NCBI GenBank assembly: GCA_965205975.1
Contig: OZ242195.1
Span: 3,840,001 to 3,904,000, forward strand
Direction: 5' to 3'
Source: Candidatus Latescibacterota bacterium
Lineage (GTDB): Bacteria; Latescibacterota; UBA2968
Length of the DNA: 64,000 bases
The notes under the pieces are model-generated. The model worked only from the letters and a program-made list of their open reading frames with translations, was not told where the DNA came from and did no database searches. The position numbers and the translations under genes are program-made. Shown one piece after another: positions 49,994 through 62,745 of this stretch (its first letter is position 1; every line of letters begins with the position of its first letter).

Positions 49994-50650
49994 ATGCCCG
50001 GCATCATCTTCTGGGATGTTGATACCCAATACGACTTCATCATGCCCGACGGCAAACTCTACGTCACCGCATCGGAAAAACGCTTGCCAAATCTCAAAAA
50101 ACTCACAGACTATGCCAGACAGCGGGGCATCCCCATCTACGGCTCGGTTGACAACCACCAGATAGCAGACCCTGAAATCTCCGACACCCCGGACTTTCAG
50201 GAGACCTTTCCGCCCCACTGCATAGCTGGAACCTCTGGACAAAAAAAAGTACCCGAAACCCAACCGCAAAACCCCCTCTGGATCGACCCGGACGCCTCGG
50301 GCGGCCTCATCGACCAAGTACAAAAACACCGCGGTGAAATCATCTTTCGCAAACAGCACTTTGACGTCTTCACCAACCCCAACGTCGAACCCGTACTCAA
50401 CGCCATCAAACCCGACCGCATCGTCCTCTACGGCGTAGCCCTCGACGTCTGCAACGCCTACGCAATTAACGGCTTCTTAAAACGCAACACAGCGCCCATA
50501 CAACTCGTCCTGGACGCCGCACAAGCCATCGACCCCGAACGCGGCGACCGCATGGTAGCCGAATGGCGACAACAGGGCGTTGAAATCGTATCGACGGATG
50601 AAATTGTCAACCCTAAAAACGTAAAAGCAACCACAGATGAACACAGATAA
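49994..50650 (+). CDS. Isochorismatase/nicotinamidase-family cysteine hydrolase
   Basis: WDVDTQYDF, FPPHC, GVALDVC. Confidence 0.88.
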   Translation: MPGIIFWDVDTQYDFIMPDGKLYVTASEKRLPNLKKLTDYARQRGIPIYGSVDNHQIADPEISDTPDFQETFPPHCIAGTSGQKKVPETQPQNPLWIDPDASGGLIDQVQKHRGEIIFRKQHFDVFTNPNVEPVLNAIKPDRIVLYGVALDVCNAYAINGFLKRNTAPIQLVLDAAQAIDPERGDRMVAEWRQQGVEIVSTDEIVNPKNVKATTDEHR

Positions 50651-50789: not shown

Positions 50790-52574
50790 ATGAACGTCTT
50801 CCTCCGCCTCATCACATACATCCGCCCTTACCTGGGCCGCGTGTGCATCGGTATCGGCGCCACCCTCGTCATGATTGGCCTGGATGCCGCGCAACCCCTG
50901 CTCATGCGCGAAGTCATCGACAACATATTAACCCCTTACTTCACAGAAGGGAATTATATTGGCGGCGACTTCTCCGACACAAAAATCGCAGCCGACTTCG
51001 ACAGCCTCCAATTCTACGCCCTGCTCCTCCTCGGCATCTATATACTCCACACCATCTTCAGCTTCATCAACCGCTACTTACTCAACCGAACGGGACAGGA
51101 CATCCTCTTCAGCCTCCGCGTCCAGGTCTATGACCACCTCCAGCACCTGGGACTGCGTTTTTACAACGACCGCAGCACCGGCGAATTGATGTCGCGCGTA
51201 ACCGCCGACGTCGAATCCCTCCAATACACCGTCACAGACACCCTGGAACGCGTACTCGTAAATATCGCAACCATCGTCATCTACGGCATCATCCTCTTTG
51301 GCCTCAGCTTCGAACTCGCCCTCATTACCCTGTTGCCCATGCCTATATACAGCATCCTCATCATCTTCTACAACCGCACCATACGCCCCTATTACACCAT
51401 GGCACGCGAACGCATAGCCGACATCAGCGCCCTTTTGCAAGACAACCTCTCCGGCATCCGCGTCATCAAATGCTTTGCCCGCGAAGGCCACGAACTCTCT
51501 CGCTTCACCCAAAAATGCAAAGCCTTCCTCACCATCAGCATCACCATCATCAAAACCCGCGTCGCCTTCTTCCCCCTCGCCCGATTCATCATCTCCATGG
51601 GACCCCTCCTCGTCCTCCTCTTCGGCGGGCAACAAATCATCTCGGGCGACCTCACCATCGGCACCCTCTTCGCCTTTCAAAGCTTTCTCTGGCGTTTCTA
51701 CGGCCCCGTAGAAAGCCTCACCCGCATCAACGACACGATCGTACGCGCAGCCGCCTCAGCGCGTCGCATCTTTGAAATCCTGGACACCCAACCCGAAATA
51801 AAAGACACCCCCAATGCGCTCCCCTTTGACCGCCTGAACGGCAGCGTTGAATTTCAGAACGTCACCTTTGCCTACGAACACGGACCCCCTGTTCTCCAGG
51901 GCGTATCCCTCAGCGCACAACCCGGGCAACTCATCGGCCTCGTTGGCCCCAGCGGCGCGGGCAAAACCACCATCATCAACCTCATCTGCCGCTTCTATGA
52001 CCCCGACTCTGGCACCGTGTGCGTTGACGGCCATGACCTCAAAAACATGCAACGCGCATCCTTGCGCAGCCAAATCGGCATGGTCTTACAAGAACCATTC
52101 CTCTTCAACGGAACCATCCGCGAAAACATCGCTTATGGCAAACTCAACGCCACCGAAACCGACATCATCAACGCCGCAATGATGGCCAACGCCCACGACT
52201 TCGTCTGCGGATTCCCGGACGCTTATGACACCCACATTGGCGAACGGGGCGTGCGCTTATCCGGCGGCGAAAAACAGCGCATCTCCATAGCCCGCGCCAT
52301 CCTCAACGACCCGCGCATCCTCATCCTGGACGAAGCCACATCCTCTGTTGACACCGAAACCGAAATGCTCATACAAAACGCCCTCGAACGCCTCATGGAA
52401 GGCCGCACCACCTTTGCGATCGCCCATCGCTTATCCACCGTGCGCCGCGCCGACTGCCTCTACGTCATCGACCGCGGCAAAATCGTCGAATTCGGCACAC
52501 ACACCCAGCTACTCGCCAGCGACGGCCTCTACGCTCGCCTGTGCGACATGCAATTTGCCTTGGAAGAAGCGTGA
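50790..52574 (+). CDS. ABC exporter, fused permease/ATPase
   Basis: TM domain, GPSGAGKTT, LSGGEKQR, ILDEATS, IAHRLST. Confidence 0.95.
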   Translation: MNVFLRLITYIRPYLGRVCIGIGATLVMIGLDAAQPLLMREVIDNILTPYFTEGNYIGGDFSDTKIAADFDSLQFYALLLLGIYILHTIFSFINRYLLNRTGQDILFSLRVQVYDHLQHLGLRFYNDRSTGELMSRVTADVESLQYTVTDTLERVLVNIATIVIYGIILFGLSFELALITLLPMPIYSILIIFYNRTIRPYYTMARERIADISALLQDNLSGIRVIKCFAREGHELSRFTQKCKAFLTISITIIKTRVAFFPLARFIISMGPLLVLLFGGQQIISGDLTIGTLFAFQSFLWRFYGPVESLTRINDTIVRAAASARRIFEILDTQPEIKDTPNALPFDRLNGSVEFQNVTFAYEHGPPVLQGVSLSAQPGQLIGLVGPSGAGKTTIINLICRFYDPDSGTVCVDGHDLKNMQRASLRSQIGMVLQEPFLFNGTIRENIAYGKLNATETDIINAAMMANAHDFVCGFPDAYDTHIGERGVRLSGGEKQRISIARAILNDPRILILDEATSSVDTETEMLIQNALERLMEGRTTFAIAHRLSTVRRADCLYVIDRGKIVEFGTHTQLLASDGLYARLCDMQFALEEA

Positions 52575-52724
52575 AAAAGCAACCACAGATGAACACAGAT
52601 AAACACGGATGAAAGGCAAAAAGCGAAAGGCAAAATCAAAATCAAAACCTCTGGATCGCGGCTAACACCATGCCGCGATGACAGACGGGACGGCACAGGG
52701 GCCGTCCCCTACGGAGATCTCGAC

Positions 52725-53267
52725 ATGGACCTCATGGTACAACAACTCATCCCCGAAACCATTGACTTATGTCAAAACGGTGACAGCCTGATCCTCTTTG
52801 CCGACGGAGAAGAACTACACATCGATCACATCGTGCGATGTTTTCCCTTTTCCACGCCCGATCAATGGATCAGCCTCCGCGACCGGGACAGAACCGAACT
52901 CGGCCTCTTGCCCACACTTGACGGATTAAATGCACAATCGCGGACACTCGTTGAAGAACACCTCAAAGACCGCTACGACATCCCCCAAATCCAGACCATA
53001 CTCAACATCGAAAGCAACAAAGAAGGCGGCACAAACTGGGACATTGACACCAACGCGGGACCTATGAACTTCACACTCCGAGGCGACCAGAACCTCAACC
53101 TCAACGCATTTCCCGAAATCGTATTCACCGACGCCATAACGCGCAAACGCTACAAAATCCCCGACTATACCAAACTCGACCGCGCCAGCCAAAAAACCGC
53201 CCGCGCGTACCTGCCCATGAGCTCTCGCCACTACTCCGGGCGCCGCGGCGGCAGGAGTGGAAGGTAA
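52725..53267 (+). CDS. DUF1854-like protein
   Basis: 'RCFPFSTPDQWISL.D....ELG', 'W.IDT..G', 'RYKIPD...LD..S'. Confidence 0.75.
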   Translation: MDLMVQQLIPETIDLCQNGDSLILFADGEELHIDHIVRCFPFSTPDQWISLRDRDRTELGLLPTLDGLNAQSRTLVEEHLKDRYDIPQIQTILNIESNKEGGTNWDIDTNAGPMNFTLRGDQNLNLNAFPEIVFTDAITRKRYKIPDYTKLDRASQKTARAYLPMSSRHYSGRRGGRSGR

Positions 53268-53274
53268 AAAAAAC

Positions 53275-53450
53275 GGGCGACCACAGGGGGTCGCCCCTAC
53301 AATACCTTCTGGATCGCACGGGACGGCACAGGGGCCGTCCCCTACACCATGCCTGCCCCTGTATGCTTTAAGCAGGGGCCGCGATGACATGCCTTTAACG
53401 TCTTGTATCTTACGTTTTATCGGTGTTTATCGGTGTTCATCTGTGGTTGC
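53275..53450. repeat. Composite REP-like cluster plus decamer repeats
   Basis: Two ...CCCCTAC hairpins, CCTGCCCCTG..AGCAGGGG, and ATCGGTGTTT/ATCTGTGGTT repeats. Confidence 0.8.
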
Positions 53451-53457
53451 ATTTCCC

Positions 53458-54915
53458 CTACTTCCCCCTTCTCGACCCCATCATCTTCGACGCGATCTCG
53501 ACCTCCTCGGCAAACGCCTCTGCCTCATCGTCATACGTATCAAACGGATCGCGGAAACTCAAATGGAATTCATTTTCCAAATACACCGAATCCCAATCCA
53601 CAATATACCGCACCCGATTTTGCGACAACGTCTTCACCATTGCCGCCCGCGCCTTTGCCCGCGTATCAGCCGGAGGCGCCCCACAAGCCTCTTCAACGCG
53701 CTCATCCGTCAGCACCCGCTGCATCTTACCCTGCTGCACCAGATCAAAATACAACCCGCGATTGGGATCGATATTGTGATACTCCAAATCCAAACTCTGC
53801 AACCACGGATCGTTCCAACTCAAATTCTCCGACTCGCGAAACGCATCCAACAACCACTTCTTAGCCACCCAGTCCAAACGATCTGTCAACTGCATCGGAT
53901 CGGACTCCAGATCATCAAGTGTGCGCTCCCACTCATCCAGCACCCAATCTGACTCCTCATCCAAACCCCTCAAATGGCGTTGCGCCAAATCCAAATACGT
54001 GCGCTGTATATCAATAGCCGAAATAGACCGCCCATTCTGCCGATCCAGAATCCACTTATGTGTCGGATCCCGCGAAATCTCCTTCAATGCCCACACCGGA
54101 TCCCCCAGATCCACATCCTGAGGAAAAATTTTGCGCTCTAAGAGATTCAGCACCATCGCAGTCGTACCAACCTTCAAAGCCGTCGCATACTCCGACATAT
54201 TCGAATCGCCCACCAGAAGGTGCAAACGGCGGTACTTGCTGTGATCTGCCAGCGGTTCATCTCGCGTATTGATAATCGCGCGAGAAAACTGAATCCACTG
54301 ATAAATCTCTGTAACAATATGATCGGCACGCTGAGAAATCTGGAAAGAAACCGCATCCTCTGTATCGGCGGCATCTCGCACATTTTGCCCATAATAATAA
54401 AAACTATCATCATAACTGCCCACGCGACCTGCACCGCAAAAAATTTGGCGCGTCACCAAGAACGGCAACAACGCGGGAATAACAACCGTTGAAAACGGCA
54501 CATTGCGCCTGACCAGATAATTTTCATGACAGCCAAACGTCGCACCCGTATAATGATCGATATTATTCTTCAAAAACGAAGCTTCTTTAGCCAACCCCAG
54601 CGCGTGCAATGCCCGATACAAAATACAATCGCCCGCCCGATCAAAAGCCACAATATCCCACAACCCCATACACTCCGGCGTGGCGTATTCCAGATGCCCC
54701 ATATCGATATAAACCCGCCCCGCATTAAACAAAAAACCCCCATTGCCCGGGGGTTCATCCCGTCCGCGATAGTGAATATCTACAATCCCTATTCGGTCAA
54801 CGTGAAAAATGTGATCCTTTACCTTCACCGAAATCGTATCTGGACTCACAAAACCCTCGTGCTCGGGTGCCAAACACCCATACTCGGTTTCTATGCCAAA
54901 AATGCGATCTCTCAT
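53458..54915 (-). CDS. pafA: Pup/UBact-protein ligase
   Basis: RIFGIETEYG, FLFNAGRVYIDMGHLEYATPEC, GCHENY, NTRDEP, RRLH, DW.AK. Confidence 0.92.
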   Translation of the reverse strand: MRDRIFGIETEYGCLAPEHEGFVSPDTISVKVKDHIFHVDRIGIVDIHYRGRDEPPGNGGFLFNAGRVYIDMGHLEYATPECMGLWDIVAFDRAGDCILYRALHALGLAKEASFLKNNIDHYTGATFGCHENYLVRRNVPFSTVVIPALLPFLVTRQIFCGAGRVGSYDDSFYYYGQNVRDAADTEDAVSFQISQRADHIVTEIYQWIQFSRAIINTRDEPLADHSKYRRLHLLVGDSNMSEYATALKVGTTAMVLNLLERKIFPQDVDLGDPVWALKEISRDPTHKWILDRQNGRSISAIDIQRTYLDLAQRHLRGLDEESDWVLDEWERTLDDLESDPMQLTDRLDWVAKKWLLDAFRESENLSWNDPWLQSLDLEYHNIDPNRGLYFDLVQQGKMQRVLTDERVEEACGAPPADTRAKARAAMVKTLSQNRVRYIVDWDSVYLENEFHLSFRDPFDTYDDEAEAFAEEVEIASKMMGSRRGK

Positions 54916-54985
54916 GGGGGGGCCTCAATGATAGATGGGCGAGGCATGCCTCGCTCCTACAATCGGGCAACCACGAGGGTTGCCC

Positions 54986-55777
54986 CTACAATATAAACGG
55001 TGCCAGCGCGGGCGCAATCTCTTCTGCATCGACATTGCGATATTTGTTTTTACCCACCTGCGACCGCCCCAACACCACCGCCTCCACCTCCAAATCCACC
55101 AACGCCGTCTCAAGCACATCAGCCACATCGACCGCCCCAGCCACCTGCTCCAACTCGTCGGCATCTGTAGGTACCTCTTCCATCTTCCCAATCCATCGCC
55201 CGATTGCCCAGGCGCGAAGCGCAGCACCTGCGGCATCTGACAAAGACAACGCCTCCGTATCCAAACCCGACAACTCGCGCACCATCATCACATCTGCCTC
55301 CACAACACCCCCCACAGCAACACATCCCTCGTGCCGATAAAACGCACCATCGTAATCCACCGTATAAAAAATCTGCGCCCCCTCCTGCCCATCCAACTCC
55401 GCCAGAAGCACCCGCGCCAAAAACGGAGACCGCACCACATCGTCAAACCCCGCCTTCATCGCAGGACCCAGACCAAAATACACAATCTGGCGCAACGTCA
55501 CATCGTCCTCTGAATAATTAAACCCAATCGAATGCGCCATATCAATCGCAGCCTGCCTGAGCTTCTCGATATCCGTCGAATGCCCAATCGCCGCAAGTCC
55601 GATGCAGTCGTACACCTCAAACACCTTTTGCTGACTCTGCGACAGCGTCAGCAACAAAATCCCATCCTCGTACCCAACACCCACAACCGGACTCCCCGTC
55701 CGAATCTGATCTTCGATATAATCGCGCCGATTCGCAACAGCCTCTGCCCAGCGATACGGCTCATCTGACAACATCAT
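54986..55777 (-). CDS. prcA: 20S proteasome alpha subunit
   Basis: 'RRDYIEDQIRTGSPVVG...GILL...KVFEVYD'; operon position. Confidence 0.88.
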   Translation of the reverse strand: MMLSDEPYRWAEAVANRRDYIEDQIRTGSPVVGVGYEDGILLLTLSQSQQKVFEVYDCIGLAAIGHSTDIEKLRQAAIDMAHSIGFNYSEDDVTLRQIVYFGLGPAMKAGFDDVVRSPFLARVLLAELDGQEGAQIFYTVDYDGAFYRHEGCVAVGGVVEADVMMVRELSGLDTEALSLSDAAGAALRAWAIGRWIGKMEEVPTDADELEQVAGAVDVADVLETALVDLEVEAVVLGRSQVGKNKYRNVDAEEIAPALAPFIL

Positions 55778-56577
55778 GCGCGTCCCGCCTCCTCCCCATC
55801 CACATATTGAACATAGAGCTGCCGCAACGCCTCGGTCTCGATCTCTTCCAGACCCGACGCCGTAATCGTCTTCACCGACGGAAAAATATCAGCCGACCGC
55901 TCGTATCGACCCGTCGCCGAATCGTATTCTGACGCTGTATCCAGAAGCTGAAGCGCGTGCCCGATAGCCGCATCGCGATCCATCTCCACAAACCGCCGAC
56001 CGCTCCAGCGATTCAAATAATACATCGCCCCGCGAATCGCCGGCGACCCCGACCCCGTCGTCGTAAAATCGGCGCTCTCGAACTGCGCCCCCAGCGCATC
56101 GTAAAAATAAATTTTACCCCGCGCATCCACCTGATCATACGTCGCAAAAATGGGAATCACAGCACCAATACCCTGCATCGCCATCGGCAAATTATCCTTA
56201 ATCAACAGCGACAACCTGCGCAACTTCGCCTGCAAACTCATCTCCTGAAGCAAACGACGGCGATAATACTGAAATGCATGCTCCAAAATTCGCGCAATCT
56301 CAAACGCAATAGACGGCGATCCCGAAATCGCCATCACAGAATACGCATCCAGATCAATCACCTTATCCGCGCGATCATAAAGCACCATATTGCCCGCTGT
56401 AGCGCGGCGATCACCTGCAACGAGCACCCCATCGGCATATTGAAATGCCAGAATCGTCGTCGCATCCGTCGGCTCAAAAGGCAAATCGCGCTCGGACTGA
56501 ACATCGCCCAAATTTTCACCTGGGAACCGGTAGCCCGTCTGCCGCAGCAAATCGACAAAATCCCCACCCGATTGCAT
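55774..56577 (-). CDS. prcB: 20S proteasome beta subunit
   Basis: 39-aa propeptide, then TTILA; Asp17 (GDRRAT), Lys33, GSGS. Confidence 0.93.
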   Translation of the reverse strand: MQSGGDFVDLLRQTGYRFPGENLGDVQSERDLPFEPTDATTILAFQYADGVLVAGDRRATAGNMVLYDRADKVIDLDAYSVMAISGSPSIAFEIARILEHAFQYYRRRLLQEMSLQAKLRRLSLLIKDNLPMAMQGIGAVIPIFATYDQVDARGKIYFYDALGAQFESADFTTTGSGSPAIRGAMYYLNRWSGRRFVEMDRDAAIGHALQLLDTASEYDSATGRYERSADIFPSVKTITASGLEEIETEALRQLYVQYVDGEEAGRA

Positions 56578-56580
56578 AAG

Positions 56581-56772
56581 CTACTCGCCTGTACGCTGGC
56601 GATAACGCCGCGCCTGATTGGGATCAACGCGCCGCATGCGCCGCAGCAAATCGCGCGTATCTGGCCGCTCCACCTTCGGGCGCGCAGGGCCACCATCGCC
56701 ATCATCACCAGGACCAGGACCTCCCGGATCGACTGGCTTCGTCCGTCGCTCAAACTGCAAGACCTTATCCAT
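56581..56772 (-). CDS. ubact: UBact, bacterial ubiquitin-like modifier
   Basis: 63 aa, G/P/D-rich; ends 'LLRRMRRVDPNQARRYRQRTGE' (R[ST]G[EQ]); sits in the pup position; SD AAGGAGG. Confidence 0.92.
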   Translation of the reverse strand: MDKVLQFERRTKPVDPGGPGPGDDGDGGPARPKVERPDTRDLLRRMRRVDPNQARRYRQRTGE

Positions 56773-56928
56773 CTACGGCCTCCTTAATGAAAAATGTCTG
56801 AATCAGGATTTACAGGATTATAGGATGAAAAACAAAATCAAAACCAACAGCAAAATCTTCTGGATCGCGGCTTACACCCTGCCGCGATGACAATCACCCC
56901 TCACACTTCACACTTTCTCCTTCACACT

Positions 56929-58452
56929 TCACACTTTCTCCAACGCAGCTAAAAAACTTTCCAACGTCTCCGAACGATCAAGCACCTCATTATAACGCTC
57001 TACCCGCTCCGCATCCACCAATAATTTCATATCCACTGCATGCTGGCGGCCATTGCGCTTAAACACAATGCGATCCCAGTTAATCGACGACACATAATCG
57101 CCGAACTTCTCCAAACTGCGCCCTCGAAAATACGCCCGCGTACCCGAAGGCGGTTCCGACATCGCCGCAGCCACCTCATCATCGCCCACCAGACGCACCA
57201 TCTGCCCCTGCGACTCCAGCAAATAATACAAACCCGCATCCCGATCCACATTGCTATACTCCAGATCCTGACTCTGCATCCAGAACAAATCATCGGGATT
57301 ATCCCACGCCAGATTCTCCGCCTCGCAAAAACTATCGATCAACCACTTCTTCGTCACCCAATCGCACACACCCACCAGATCCATCGGATCGCGGCTCAAC
57401 TTCTCCAACACATCTTCCCACGCCGACAACACCCAATCCGTCTCTCGATCCCGCCCGGCAAACTCGCGCCGTGCCAAATTCAAAAACGCATCCTGAATCT
57501 CAACCGCGGGAACGAGGCGATGGCCGGGCCCCTCCACCTCAACCAACCACGCATGCGACTGATCCCGCGCGATATTCTTCATCGCCGCAATCGGATCCTT
57601 CAACCGATAATCCGGCAAACAATCCGCCTCAATCAAATCGATCACCAGCGCCGTTGTCCCCACCTTAAGCGCCGTAATATACTCCGACATATTGGCATCG
57701 CCCACAATTACATGCAACCGGCGATATTGCGCCGCATCTGCGTGGGGTTCATCGCGCGTATTCACAACCGGACGCTTGTGCATCGTATCCACACTCGCGA
57801 TCACCTCAAAAAACTCCGCGCGCTGCGACAACTGATAAATCGGTGCGCGATCCTCCCGCTCAACCCCCACCTTGCCAGCCCCGCAAAAAATTTGCCGCGT
57901 GGGGAAAAACAACAACAACCCCTTCAATATACGCTCGAAAGGCACCGAGCGATCCATCAAATAATTCTCGTGACACCCATAGCTATGCCCTTCAAAATCC
58001 GTATTATTCTTATACATCCGCACAGTGCCCTGATCGAGCATCTCCGTCCGCCGCTGCGCGCAAATATCCACAATGCGCTCCCCCGCCTTATCCTGTGCCA
58101 CAAGCTCGAACAAACTTATGCACTCACCCGTCGAATACTCTGGATGCGTATGATCGTTGTAAAACCGGGACCCATTGTAAATAATCAAATCGCTCTTCAA
58201 TTCCTTAAACGGAATCTTGCGCTTGCGATCCTGTTGCAAATGCACCTTTTCATCGACATCATTCAACAGATTTTTAACTTCAAACCCCCGCTCATCCCGA
58301 CGGGGATTCTCCAGCCGATAATCCCACAACGGAACAAACTTACCCTGCTGATAGCACCGAATCAACTGCATTGACTCTTCCACCACATCGACCTTATCCA
58401 CCTCGTCAATCGTGATTCCGTATTCTGTTTCTATACCGAATAAGCGCGTCAT
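56929..58452 (-). CDS. dop: Dop-like deamidase/isopeptidase
   Basis: GIETEYG, NGSRFYNDHTHPEYS, KNNTD..GHSYGCHENY, RRLHVIVGDAN. Confidence 0.9.
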   Translation of the reverse strand: MTRLFGIETEYGITIDEVDKVDVVEESMQLIRCYQQGKFVPLWDYRLENPRRDERGFEVKNLLNDVDEKVHLQQDRKRKIPFKELKSDLIIYNGSRFYNDHTHPEYSTGECISLFELVAQDKAGERIVDICAQRRTEMLDQGTVRMYKNNTDFEGHSYGCHENYLMDRSVPFERILKGLLLFFPTRQIFCGAGKVGVEREDRAPIYQLSQRAEFFEVIASVDTMHKRPVVNTRDEPHADAAQYRRLHVIVGDANMSEYITALKVGTTALVIDLIEADCLPDYRLKDPIAAMKNIARDQSHAWLVEVEGPGHRLVPAVEIQDAFLNLARREFAGRDRETDWVLSAWEDVLEKLSRDPMDLVGVCDWVTKKWLIDSFCEAENLAWDNPDDLFWMQSQDLEYSNVDRDAGLYYLLESQGQMVRLVGDDEVAAAMSEPPSGTRAYFRGRSLEKFGDYVSSINWDRIVFKRNGRQHAVDMKLLVDAERVERYNEVLDRSETLESFLAALEKV

Positions 58453-58476
58453 AATTCAGTCCCGAACCACCACCTG

Positions 58477-58551
58477 CGGGCGGGCACAAGACCCGCCCCT
58501 ACAATTTTTCCATCTGCGTCCATCTGCGTCCATCTGCGTCTATCTGCGGAT
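58477..58551. repeat. REP-like hairpin plus (CATCTGCGTC)n decamer repeat between arc and dop
   Basis: GGGCGGGCACAAGACCCGCCCCTAC; CATCTGCGTC x3 + TATCTGCGGA. Confidence 0.85.
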
Positions 58552-60191
58552 CACACCACACCATGCCCGCGGGTGCGTCGTTCTCGCCTGGGGCGAATCG
58601 GTGCTGCGCGCACCACATTTTCCGGATCGTAATCCAGCAACTTCAACCAATCCTCTGTATTATCCGTCGGCGGGAAAATCTCATTCTCGCTATACTCCGT
58701 CTCAATCCCCGCGAGCAAATCGTCAAAACCAATCCCATCTTCCGCGCCAGAAGCAATACACCGCTTAATCGCAATCTCCTTCGCACGCTGCGCAATAGAC
58801 TCGAGAATTGCCCCACTACACAGATCTCCGCGACTCAACACTTCCTTCCGACCGCTTCTAAGCGTCACCTCCAAAAAACGCGTATCATCGCGCCTGGCAT
58901 ATATCTCTGCAATCGCGCGCGCCACCAGATCGTCAACTGCTGCCCGCACATTGCCATCATGCACATTTAACGCAGCCTCTGACAGCGGCAAATCAGCCGT
59001 CAAATAAATACCCAAAATCTCGCGCGCCGCATCCATATCCGGTCGAATAACCTTGATCTTGCGATCAATTCTCCCCGGACGCAAAATCGCCGGATCGATC
59101 AAATCTGGACGATTGGACGTCAAAATAATCACCACATCTTGCAGTGACTCGATCCCATCCATCTCGGAACAAAACATCGGCACAACCGTATTTGAAATAT
59201 TGTGCGACCGAATTGCCCGCCGCGTCCCCAAAACCGACTCTGCCTCGTCGATAAACACCACCGGCAAAAATCCCTCGCGCCGCTTCTCCCGCGCCTGGGA
59301 GAAAATCTCGCGCACCTTGCGTTCAGACTCTCCCAACCACATATTCAAAATCTCAGGACCCTTAATATGCATAAAACACGCCTTGAGATTCAGGCCGTCT
59401 TCCTGCACCTGCCGCTCCAGATTGTACGCCGTCGCCTTCCCAATCAGCGTCTTGCCACACCCCGGCGGACCGTACAACAAAAACCCCTTGGGCGTACTGT
59501 ACTGAAACCGCTTAAACAACTCTGGATGCAACACCGGCATCTCAATCGTATCTTTAATCGCCTGAATCGCATCCTTTTGTCCACCGATCTTCTCCCACGG
59601 CAAATCGGGCACTTCCTCCAAATAAAAATCCTTAACCTCGCACATCTTCTCCAGCGCCACGCGAAAATGCGGATCGATACGCACCTCTTCGCCCGCCTTC
59701 AAAGCCTCGGCCTCCAGATCTGCCCCTCGCAGCAGAACATGCGTCTGCGAACCGTGCTCTTGCCCCACCTGCAAACGCCCATCGTCCAGCACATCGACAA
59801 TTTTGCCCACAGTCCCCGACGGAGACTCCCCCATATCGCCCACCACGGCAAACGCCTCATTGACCAGCACGCGCGTACCCACCCTCAAACTGCGGTCATC
59901 CAACCGCGAATCCACATTCGCATAATACTCCGCCCCCCCCACCGTAAGATACGCGATACCATTCTCTGGCGGTGCCAACAGCGTCCCCACCCGATTGGCC
60001 GGAGCCGTCACCTTCTCCAGCGCCCCTTCCAGCTCCACAATCGTGCGCCTCGCCTCTTCAAACGTAATCTCATCTTCCTGAAGCTGCCGACGCAACTGGT
60101 ACAACAGGGGCCGCCGTCGATCCGTCTCATCCATCGTCATCAAAATTTGATCGATAATCGACAACGACTGAAACGTATGCTGCATATCCAC
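58551..60191 (-). CDS. arc: Proteasome-associated AAA ATPase (ARC/Mpa); the true start may be the ATC at 60251
   Basis: Coiled coil and OB region, GPPGCGKT, FIDEAES, 'SNRPDLIDPAILRPGRID'. Confidence 0.93.
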   Translation of the reverse strand: MDMQHTFQSLSIIDQILMTMDETDRRRPLLYQLRRQLQEDEITFEEARRTIVELEGALEKVTAPANRVGTLLAPPENGIAYLTVGGAEYYANVDSRLDDRSLRVGTRVLVNEAFAVVGDMGESPSGTVGKIVDVLDDGRLQVGQEHGSQTHVLLRGADLEAEALKAGEEVRIDPHFRVALEKMCEVKDFYLEEVPDLPWEKIGGQKDAIQAIKDTIEMPVLHPELFKRFQYSTPKGFLLYGPPGCGKTLIGKATAYNLERQVQEDGLNLKACFMHIKGPEILNMWLGESERKVREIFSQAREKRREGFLPVVFIDEAESVLGTRRAIRSHNISNTVVPMFCSEMDGIESLQDVVIILTSNRPDLIDPAILRPGRIDRKIKVIRPDMDAAREILGIYLTADLPLSEAALNVHDGNVRAAVDDLVARAIAEIYARRDDTRFLEVTLRSGRKEVLSRGDLCSGAILESIAQRAKEIAIKRCIASGAEDGIGFDDLLAGIETEYSENEIFPPTDNTEDWLKLLDYDPENVVRAAPIRPRRERRTRGHGVV

Positions 60192-60292: not shown

Positions 60293-60321
60293 AGAATACC
60301 ATATCTCAAAACCCGTGTCAA
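60293..60321 (-). promoter_or_regulatory. Sigma70-like promoter of the UBact-proteasome operon
   Basis: TTGACA-17 bp-TATTCT with a TG extended -10. Confidence 0.7.
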
Positions 60322-60351
60322 GCCGCGAGACGGGCGAGGCATGCCTCGCCC

Positions 60352-61281
60352 CTACTCCTTCTCCAACTTCTCTAACTTGCGCTCCATATCGATCTTAACC
60401 TCGGCGACAATATTGGCAATCGGATCCCGCTTCCCCGCTTTAATCACCACGGGCCTATCGATATTAAAATGCACCTTGTGCTCCATCACCAGGCCGCGCG
60501 TCGCATCGATCACCCACGACCCCCCGCCTGTACCCTTCCCATTGTAATACAAAGAAGCCGCACTCACATCGATCCACCCCGCGTACATCACCTCACTATC
60601 CTCATCGATATGCACCTCCACGCGCCCCTTCTCCTGCTTGATATTCTTCACCTCATACGTACTCTTAATTTTAATCTCCGAATCGCGCCCCAGCATATCC
60701 ATACTCGCAAAAGGACGCCAAAAAACGCGCTCCCCCGTCCAGGTATCGCCCTTATTAACCGGACCCTCTGGCAAAACCGGTGCAAACGCCGGCATCGCCC
60801 CCTGGTACATATCCGTAATCAAATCCTGCCGCTCCACGCGAAACGCGGGAAAATCCGGCTCGAACTTCTGCGCTATGCCCTCGGGCGTCACCTGCCAGGT
60901 AAAAACCCTGTCATTAAACATATCAAACGTAAACGGAAACTGCTCATACGTCTGCTTCTCACCCAGAAAAATCGCTGCACTCGCCCCCTTTTTAATCTCA
61001 GCGCGGATCCCCATCACCCCTTCGGGAATCGTCCGCCCCGGCAATGCCCGGGGCACAACCACCTCTTCATGGCTGCGCCACTCATTATCTATAATCACGC
61101 GAATATGCCCGCTCCGCATCACAATCTGCTCGCCCTGATTGCTGTAATACTCCACCCGGAACTTGTGCTTATATCGCGCCTTGCGTCCTTCCGGAAACTT
61201 CAATGCCAGCACAGTGGGTTGCGCCCAACAATCGGCGGCAACACCGGCGAGTAACCCGAGAACAATCGTTAATTTCCACAT
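60352..61281 (-). CDS. Exported hypothetical protein
   Basis: Signal peptide; 'LPEGPVNKGDTW'; SD GGAGG. Confidence 0.65.
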   Translation of the reverse strand: MWKLTIVLGLLAGVAADCWAQPTVLALKFPEGRKARYKHKFRVEYYSNQGEQIVMRSGHIRVIIDNEWRSHEEVVVPRALPGRTIPEGVMGIRAEIKKGASAAIFLGEKQTYEQFPFTFDMFNDRVFTWQVTPEGIAQKFEPDFPAFRVERQDLITDMYQGAMPAFAPVLPEGPVNKGDTWTGERVFWRPFASMDMLGRDSEIKIKSTYEVKNIKQEKGRVEVHIDEDSEVMYAGWIDVSAASLYYNGKGTGGGSWVIDATRGLVMEHKVHFNIDRPVVIKAGKRDPIANIVAEVKIDMERKLEKLEKE

Positions 61282-61329
61282 AAGCACCTCCTAAACGATC
61301 ACGGATGAAAGCCTGCCCCTCATCTCATA

Positions 61330-61548
61330 CCAACTCAGGTGGTAAAGATGCTTCGGCTGCGCTCAGCATGACAAAACACCACTCGCCAACTCAGGTGGAA
61401 CAGATGCTTCGGCTGCGCTCAGCATGACAAAACACCACTCGCCAACTCAGGTGGAACAGATGCTTCGGCTGCGCTCAGCATGACAAAACACCACTCGCCA
61501 ACTCAGGTGGAACAGATGCTTCGGCTACGCTCAGCATGACAAAACACC
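61330..61548. repeat. Tandem repeat, about 4 x 56 bp
   Basis: Units start at 61330, 61386, 61442 and 61498: CCAACTCAGGTGGAACAGATGCTTCGGCTGCGCTCAGCATGACAAAACACCACTCG. Confidence 0.95.
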
Positions 61549-62602: not shown

Positions 62603-62745
62603 TTATGTCTCCTTTTAAATGCAACCACAGATGAACACAGATAAACACGGATAAATGACGGGCGAGGCATGCCTCGCCCCTACAGGTGTTCACACTTCAA
62701 CCATCGTGCTCGAATATAGTTTCACATATATAATACCGCAATAAC

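Follow-up and report, generated by a model that had tools for sequence, protein, structure and literature searches.

We analyzed a 64,000-nucleotide stretch of the genome of Candidatus Latescibacterota bacterium (assembly GCA_965205975.1, contig OZ242195.1, positions 3,840,001 to 3,904,000 of the forward strand; hereafter, the window), in which an earlier annotation, here called the original prediction, had recognized a complete UBact-proteasome operon. Six intact open reading frames (ORFs) occupy positions 53458..60191 of the window in the order arc-dop-ubact-prcB-prcA-pafA, as predicted, and all of them lie on the minus strand, which the prediction had left unstated. The genes and the terminal codons of arc are as follows:

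58551..60191, minus strand: arc/mpa, proteasomal AAA+ unfoldase, 546 amino acids from a GTG start or 544 from an ATG two codons downstream
58554..58565, minus strand: ARC tail HGVV, the last four codons, a tail not of the hydrophobic-tyrosine-any residue (HbYX) type, with two beta-branched final residues
56929..58452, minus strand: dop, predicted deconjugase/deamidase, 507 amino acids, with the Dop-loop WDYRLE at 43 and the catalytic motif DHTHPE
56581..56772, minus strand: ubact, 63-amino-acid modifier ending in RQRTGE (PF20513, NF033388)
55774..56577, minus strand: prcB, 20S beta subunit, 267 amino acids (PF00227, TIGR03690)
54986..55777, minus strand: prcA, 20S alpha subunit, 263 amino acids, overlapping prcB by 4 nucleotides
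53458..54915, minus strand: pafA-like gene, predicted UBact ligase, 485 amino acids, with DMGHLE, alpha-loop HIVTEIYQWIQFSR and RDEPL (PF03136)

Each of these genes is present as a single copy in the 5.56-Mb genome. The profile searches suggested together with the original prediction matched AAA and OB domains in ARC, the Pfam family Pup_ligase (PF03136) in two proteins (509 and 486 bits), Proteasome in both 20S subunits (89 and 37 bits) and UBact in the small ORF. The latter scored 70.4 bits against PF20513 (cut-off 27.8) and 80.2 bits against NCBIfam NF033388 (cut-off 35), so that its designation as a UBact of 63 residues ending in RTGE is borne out. It is also the only one of the six to pass in NCBIfam; the other five scored too low for the actinobacterial equivalog models, with ARC reaching 459 bits against TIGR03689 (cut-off 505) and the pafA-like protein 379 bits against TIGR03686 (cut-off 551). 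ARC shows a coiled coil, two OB domains, an AAA domain and a beta-grasp domain (PF17758, PF16450, PF00004), with Walker A at residue 241, Walker B at 314 and the pore loop MWLG at 284-287, and its best solved match is Mpa 5KWA. Given that a Shine-Dalgarno-like TAAGGAGG lies 5' of the ubact ORF and that ubact is matched in 41/41 of the nearest genomes, this ORF does not occur by chance. The genome has two strong ClpP matches, and HslV was not found in it, there being no third PF00227 gene.

The named close homologues of ARC were labelled Gemmatimonadota bacterium (97-98% identity) and Ca. Latescibacteria bacterium (at most 95%), in agreement with the predicted non-actinobacterial setting. Based on these labels and on the RNA runs, of which the six with over a fifth of the sequence words are all sponge metagenomes, the host is likely a sponge-associated bacterium of the Latescibacterota type. 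Within the phylum, 128 of the 168 genomes have UBact, including 125 of the 131 other genomes of the class and 2/2 of one further family, with 0/34 elsewhere; among the 40 genomes without UBact, three gave a Pup-ligase match, and these three belong to the same class as the window. Conservation of the small ORF in syntenic loci, on which the original prediction had staked its reading, was found as well, in that 39 of the 40 loci retrieved from relatives contain the whole set of six genes. The remaining locus holds a second, solo ubact copy (L038:4783-5025, G024:C146), the 11 kb retrieved containing nothing else of the operon; the full operon lies on another contig of that genome, whose 6% contamination makes a binning matter possible. 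A tandem ubact pair was also seen (L243:7109-7587, G078:C69), the second copy of which has a proline-rich insert and ends in RQRDGGVN instead of RQRTGE; lacking a terminal Glu or Gln, it is predicted to be a decayed copy or a non-conjugatable decoy. In one family outside the class (L240 and L241; G049, G050), about 2 kb separate prcB from prcA or prcA from pafA, and L240 carries a second arc-like match upstream.

The operon is a real, intact and ordinary member of a described and widespread system. The UBact-proteasome system of Gram-negative phyla was reportedly named by Lehmann et al. in 2017 (doi 10.1016/j.bbrc.2017.01.037), and the features reportedly described there are shared by the locus: the modifier family, the RTGE end, the gene order, and an ATPase with two Pup-ligase-family enzymes and 20S alpha and beta subunits. 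Other papers mention Pup-like systems in verrucomicrobia and nitrospirae (PMC2588565), a separate Gram-negative 20S cluster (PMC5666114), and a sporadic occurrence of Dop and PafA outside Actinobacteria (PMC7947786). In Verrucomicrobiota the UBact-type ligase is common and the operon genes are split over several loci: among 80 ligase loci, ubact-prcB-prcA lie within 10 kb in seven and arc in none. In Chthoniobacterales and Ca. Udaeobacter (L051-L130), the ligase mostly has neither ubact-prcB-prcA nor arc-dop next to it; six of the seven UBact sequences seen there have a Gln end, and the PrcB sequences seen carry QA|TT. A UBact-type ligase was not found among viral contigs; one phage-deposited record (MT835496.1:43724-45052) gave two Pup-ligase-family matches at 35% identity and is probably host DNA.

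Within the UBact family, nothing separates the window locus. Its ARC has a private two-residue in-frame deletion at residues 180-185 (59630-59650), where it reads EKMCEV and its closest relatives read EKMPHSEV. The deletion sits at the OB-AAA junction, contigs of three runs have extra letters at 59639, and it may reflect strain variation or an error of assembly. PrcB has a 39-residue propeptide with a predicted cleavage at DA|TT, and an alignment to the Rhodococcus beta subunit shows Thr1, Asp17, Lys33, Gly47 and the GSG motif intact. To our knowledge, Gly is near-universal at position -1 of this cleavage site, and a literature search on the point found nothing. However, we rejected the Ala at -1 as a defect special to the window genome, given that it is common to 29 of 71 UBact-type PrcB sequences; it is also found in Nonomuraea (HA|TT), so that it is tolerated.

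One feature that sets the family apart lies at the end of the unfoldase. According to two reviews (PMC8755798, PMC12288473), binding of the ATPase to 20S depends chiefly on the penultimate tyrosine, in eukaryotes as well as in bacteria. The window ARC ends in RTRGHGVV and carries neither a GQYL nor another HbYX tail, a point that the original prediction had overlooked. Among 120 close ARC homologues, Tyr or Phe is penultimate in none and the last residue is Val or Ile in 119. We also compared 82 complete ARC tails (80 distinct), which come from 40 Latescibacterota-type loci, from genomes chosen for their UBact-type ligase (27 tails, labelled Verrucomicrobiota apart from one Dormiibacterota, with two loci counted twice) and from 15 metagenome operons. 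Val or Ile is the last residue in 80/80 distinct tails and the penultimate one in 72/80, and Tyr, Phe or Trp is never penultimate (0/80). The entropy was 0.9 and 1.3 bits at these two places, compared with about 3 bits in the variable linker, and the protein ends 30-35 residues past a conserved Trp in 80/82 tails. Val or Ile ends are much rarer in other operon proteins of the same loci (6/58, 11/75, 1/78 and 15/179, or 1-15%), and both actinobacterial control ARCs (Nonomuraea and Tsukamurella) end in GQYL. The cultured Chthoniobacter flavus has the same type of tail, and also the same type of alpha pocket. Since ARC is without a tyrosine tail, it would likely dock by its Val/Ile tail instead.

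The ring that receives the tail has changed as well. In the actinobacterial complex, the GQYL tyrosine bonds Arg26 or Glu119 of the alpha subunit and the terminal carboxylate bonds Lys52, Arg26 and Lys52 being essential for PafE-driven degradation, as stated in passages of PMC9599533. The window PrcA keeps Lys51, Gly65 and Asp143, which correspond to Lys52, Gly66 and Asp144, and has Thr27 for Arg26, Leu120 for Glu119 and His66 for Lys67. In 78 UBact-type PrcA sequences, Lys52, Gly66 and Asp144 were each found 78 times; by contrast, Glu119 was never found (Ile 39, Leu 32, Thr 4, Met 2, Val 1), Arg26 was kept in three, and Lys67 was replaced by His in 77. A basic residue stands one place ahead of Arg26 in 59 of the 78. 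Streptosporangiales-type PrcA sequences have both Arg26 and Glu119 in 120/120. The pocket register was the same in two profile alignments, and the PrcA model (predicted local distance difference test score 91.1) found bacterial alpha subunits as its nearest solved folds, with a template modeling score of about 0.7. PrcA also differs at its N-terminus, the pattern of which is invariant (E6-P7-x-R9). We dropped the reading of its Tyr20 as a remnant of the archaeal type, because Streptosporangiales carry Tyr20 too. A complex prediction with three PrcA copies and the last 33 residues of ARC scored 0.00, was run without controls and was used neither way. At the level of alignments, the family thus shows a tail lacking the penultimate Tyr, a conserved Val/Ile end at a near-fixed distance, and pocket changes that match it, and we read the alpha pocket as a docking site that was apparently retained and re-cut.

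Elsewhere ARC is a complete ATPase, with Walker A in 82/82 and Walker B in 81/82. Its pore loop is MW[LV]G in 81/82, as opposed to K[FY]VG in actinobacteria, where a passage in PMC8755798 describes a strictly conserved lysine. The beta-hairpin was a basic RSGR type in all 47 of the 82 sequences that the pattern matched (35 were unmatched), compared with ANGDK in the two actinobacterial controls. No candidate activator ending in GxY[LI] stood out among the long ORFs of the genome, where three matched, and searches for Bpa/PafE, run without a positive control, found it in 0/1 and 0/4 genomes.

Next, we considered the tag and the enzyme that removes it. The C-terminal R[T/S]G[E/Q] is reportedly the UBact signature of Lehmann et al. 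in 2017. Among 120 listed UBact homologues, 96 end in RTGE and 22 in RTGQ, with R[TS]G[EQ] in 119/120, and in the 40 loci of relatives the last residue is Glu in 31 and Gln in nine. The last 30 residues are basic in 73/73 (net charge +3 to +7, window +5), compared with -9 in the one Pup examined, and the Pup modifier (PF05639, with a GG[EQ] end) was found in 0/4 genomes, including that of the window, while the control matched in Corynebacterium glutamicum. We rejected a charge swap between the tag and the ARC coiled coil: the 38 residues before the OB domain, which a motif located in 60 of the 80 UBact-type ARCs (20 were unmatched), have an average net charge of -0.55, similar to the two actinobacterial controls (-1 and +1). 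A literature search on coiled-coil charge returned nothing relevant.

The best solved match of the window Dop is Dop 4B0R, at 391 bits compared with 253 for PafA. The Dop-loop motif occurs in 50/51 Dops and the D-H-x-H-P-E loop in 51/51, the window protein having both, and the active-site residues are identical across all 51. Because UBact ends in Glu here, deamidation is not needed, as the original prediction had argued; its further claim that Dop acts only as a deconjugase and recycler describes the supply of substrate and not the enzyme. In relatives with a Gln end, an enzyme of the same family has to deamidate the tag, and these relatives together with the invariant active site indicate that the window Dop is likely still able to deamidate. 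A Glu-ending UBact thus likely leaves Dop as remover and recycler in this genome. This logic is not new, in that it is already published for Pup: passages in PMC12288473 and PMC3511204 state it for species with Pup-Glu.

The pafA-like protein scored higher on the solved Dop (303 bits) than on the solved PafA (255 bits), and its label was therefore put to the test. Residues were counted in 71 ligases (the window's and a random 70 of 172 distinct ones) and in 51 Dops, with eight plus eight actinobacterial-type references assigned by motif except for the Nonomuraea pair. The equivalents of Glu8, Glu10, Asp94, Glu99, His155, Arg227 and His241 are found in all ligases and all Dops. The Dop-loop motif is absent from the UBact ligases (0/71) and Dop His95 is replaced by Met in 71/71, while features of the PafA type are common, namely Phe54 in 71/71, His188 in 60/71 and a C-terminal DP[FL] in 68/71. 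At 18 diagnostic positions scored from Table 1 of PMC7947786 (positions 3 and 4 being left out), the window ligase is PafA-like at six, Dop-like at three and neither at nine, and it lacks the PafA-specific LDVGSH insertion and the alpha-loop WEGVSSATTRS residues given there. Its alpha-loop is family-specific, with W and Q each in 71/71 and both conserved threonines replaced ([VI]Q in 71/71), and DEPH is replaced by DEPL in 71/71. According to passages of the same paper, the alpha-loop of PafA contacts targets, and loss of the Dop-loop with a changed alpha-loop converts a Dop to a ligase.

We also examined the origin of the ligase with trees. In a 32-row tree, the four groups each received a support of 100/100, with UBact ligase as a clade of its own and UBact Dop at 99/99 under C20. 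The LG+G4 bootstraps placed the ligase with PafA in 608 of 1000 and with its own Dop in 392, the corresponding numbers under C20 being 515 and 483, and an approximately unbiased test of an alternative placement, which covered just one of the two alternative groupings, gave p 0.47. FastTree with 112 rows kept the ligase apart from the Dop-type clade with a support of 99, a value that according to the program itself should be distrusted where branches are long. A derivation of the ligase from Dop on the basis of bit scores alone was not accepted, the trees being split. The protein labelled PafA is a family of its own with a different alpha-loop, for which the present trees do not separate a position as sister to PafA from one as sister to its own Dop; the label of the original prediction likely holds for function, as a UBact ligase, while orthology to actinobacterial PafA is one of the two possible placements. 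In addition, many representatives of the Pup-ligase family (P0004-P0150) belong with none of Dop, PafA and the UBact pair and form branches of their own in the 112-row FastTree, for example the YVDMGHPEY and YYDxGHxEW types.

Compared with the actinobacterial Pup-proteasome (5KWA, 4B0R, 4B0T, 1Q5Q, 3H6F), the UBact system shares the gene order, the folds and the pocket residues Lys52, Gly66 and Asp144, and the catalytic residues of Dop, ligase, ATPase and beta subunit are the same. It differs in having a basic modifier without a PF05639 match and no Pup-type one, in the Val/Ile end and pore loop of ARC, in a pocket without Glu119 and mostly without Arg26, and in a ligase alpha-loop of its own. 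Based on these comparisons, we propose that the intact UBact-proteasome works in a Pup-like manner, with ARC docking through its tyrosine-free Val/Ile tail and not through GQYL/HbYX. We hold tagging of the Pup type as such to be highly probable, and the whole proposal, including the docking, to be probable to a lesser degree. In this scheme, the PafA-like enzyme would ligate the terminal Glu of UBact to target lysines by an ATP-dependent gamma-glutamyl-lysine bond, ARC would bind and unfold the tagged proteins, and the 20S particle, with Thr1 of PrcB (residue 40) exposed autocatalytically, would degrade what ARC feeds it. Dop would take UBact off targets; owing to the Glu end, it would mostly edit and recycle here, and would deamidate as well in the Gln-ending relatives. 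At the interface, the terminal carboxylate of ARC may form a salt bridge with Lys52 of PrcA, and the penultimate aliphatic side chain may pack where Glu119 became Leu or Ile. As in 11S, opening of the gate may be aided by a second element, which could be the basic RSGRK hairpin or the distinct N-terminus of the alpha subunit.

There is a precedent for such a mode. Eukaryotic 11S/PA28 and actinobacterial Cpa likewise have no HbYX, and 11S binds by its terminal residue and opens the gate by a separate loop (passages in PMC6017811), which is the mode that would apply to UBact-type ARC. However, 11S works without ATP and Cpa is an accessory homologue of Cdc48, whereas UBact-type ARC is presumably the main tag-reading unfoldase, and here the pocket has changed too. 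Literature searches, with most subscription journals outside their scope, returned no paper on a Val/Ile tail, a changed alpha pocket or a UBact ligase family with its own alpha-loop and no report of covalent UBact conjugation or UBact biochemistry; a search on Latescibacterota proteasomes returned nothing relevant.

Several points weigh against this proposal. The covariation of tail and pocket is one contrast between two clades and not many independent changes, and the actinobacterial pocket control consists of one order and two solved structures. The basic residue before Arg26 could replace Arg26, and position 119 may matter for assembly and not for docking, because the E119A defect has been put down, speculatively, to failed propeptide processing (a passage in PMC9599533). 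Loss of the tail motif is a known mark of an ARC uncoupled from the proteasome (PMC3511204), and Cpa binds the 20S particle without using its last five residues (PMC6017811). Furthermore, the contigs from RNA libraries cover the flanks of the operon too and carry neither strand nor level.

Two other accounts of the tail were considered. In one, the tagging pathway is the same, and ARC contacts the 20S particle mainly via other surfaces, such as the beta-hairpin and the pore-2 loop, in the manner of Cpa, or else the gate is not tightly shut; the Val/Ile tail would then serve elsewhere, by tucking into the ARC ring or by binding a partner. The stacking of Cpa on 20S without a penultimate Tyr or its last five residues (passages in PMC6017811 and PMC6466877), the invariant but different N-terminus of PrcA and the basic hairpin all fit this account. 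On the other hand, the pocket residues Lys52, Gly66 and Asp144 are invariant, and the most conserved position of the tail is the very last residue, which bears the carboxylate; we therefore consider it unlikely. We regard as more doubtful still that ARC is uncoupled from 20S altogether, so that tagged proteins are unfolded or disassembled, as happens in corynebacteria without a proteasome, and 20S acts alone or with another activator. The ATPases of proteasome-less actinobacteria indeed lack the interaction motif (PMC3511204), the genes are split in Verrucomicrobiota, and the genome has ClpP. However, intact 20S genes are kept beside ubact in 39/40 loci, the ARC tail is conserved and not decayed, and the ORF search described above brought out no alternative activator with a GxY[LI] end.

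The third account concerns the tagging step, at which the pathway would differ if the PafA-like protein were another hydrolase of the Dop type or used a different acceptor. Its higher score on the solved Dop, the nine of 18 diagnostic positions that are of neither type, and the invariant [VI]Q and DEPL are what would be expected. Nevertheless, this seems very improbable: the Dop-loop and His95 are gone, while Phe54, His188 and DP[FL] are found at the frequencies given above, and the published conversion of Dop to a ligase involves the same two kinds of change. Moreover, this protein is the sole other family member in the genome, so that there would be no ligase without it.

The operon itself is one more member of a catalogued system, and its possible weight lies in the family-wide features. 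A widespread proteasome whose only unfoldase is without the penultimate Tyr, and in which two Tyr-binding pocket residues are changed, makes HbYX-free gate opening testable; if the proposed docking is true, it breaks the HbYX rule for tag-reading proteasomal ATPases. The ligase, with a third kind of alpha-loop, offers a natural test of the hydrolase-to-ligase switch described in PMC7947786, and the basic tag, together with the ligase that belongs to it, could become a tool for labelling that is orthogonal to Pup/PafA. More tentatively, and at somewhat less than even confidence, we suggest that UBact proteasomes may be a second, independently tuned bacterial tag-and-degrade machine, with docking and opening by the two-residue Val/Ile tail, a tyrosine-blind pocket, a ligase that perhaps evolved from a Dop-like ancestor independently of PafA, and a basic tag that would be orthogonal to Pup.

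Finally, we analyzed the flanks. The comparison with RNA data included four of the 18 listed runs, and in it the operon is covered by contigs from relatives, most of which are 90-99% alike; one contig spans 55378-58453 across ubact. Two regulatory candidates were noted:

60293..60321, minus strand: sigma-70-like promoter candidate TTGACA-17-TATTCT with extended TG, about 100 nucleotides upstream of arc
53275..53296, minus strand: terminator-like hairpin candidate with a T run, downstream of pafA

Neither class of match exceeds chance in the region, with 10 promoter matches against 7.1 +/- 2.5 and 12 terminator-like hairpins against 9.3 +/- 3.5 in shuffles. Palindromic repeats resembling repetitive extragenic palindromes lie in the junctions and flanks of the operon (54934-54990, 56828-56892, 58476-58517, 60329-60370 and 62657-62698); they fill gaps at arc/dop, dop/ubact and prcA/pafA, and are also present elsewhere nearby. 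A second repeat family (CACAGATGAACAC...) occurs at 50623, 52575, 53410 and 62617. Between two minus-strand genes, a tandem repeat with a 56-nucleotide period extends over 61330-61548 in about four units that are 97-100% alike. Convergent on pafA, the plus strand at 50790-53267 encodes an ATP-binding cassette exporter followed by a DUF1854 gene with a weak match to NF052234, a cyanophycin-associated family. Directly upstream of arc and on the same minus strand, 60352-61287 encodes a predicted secreted protein of 311 amino acids with a weak DUF6263 match.

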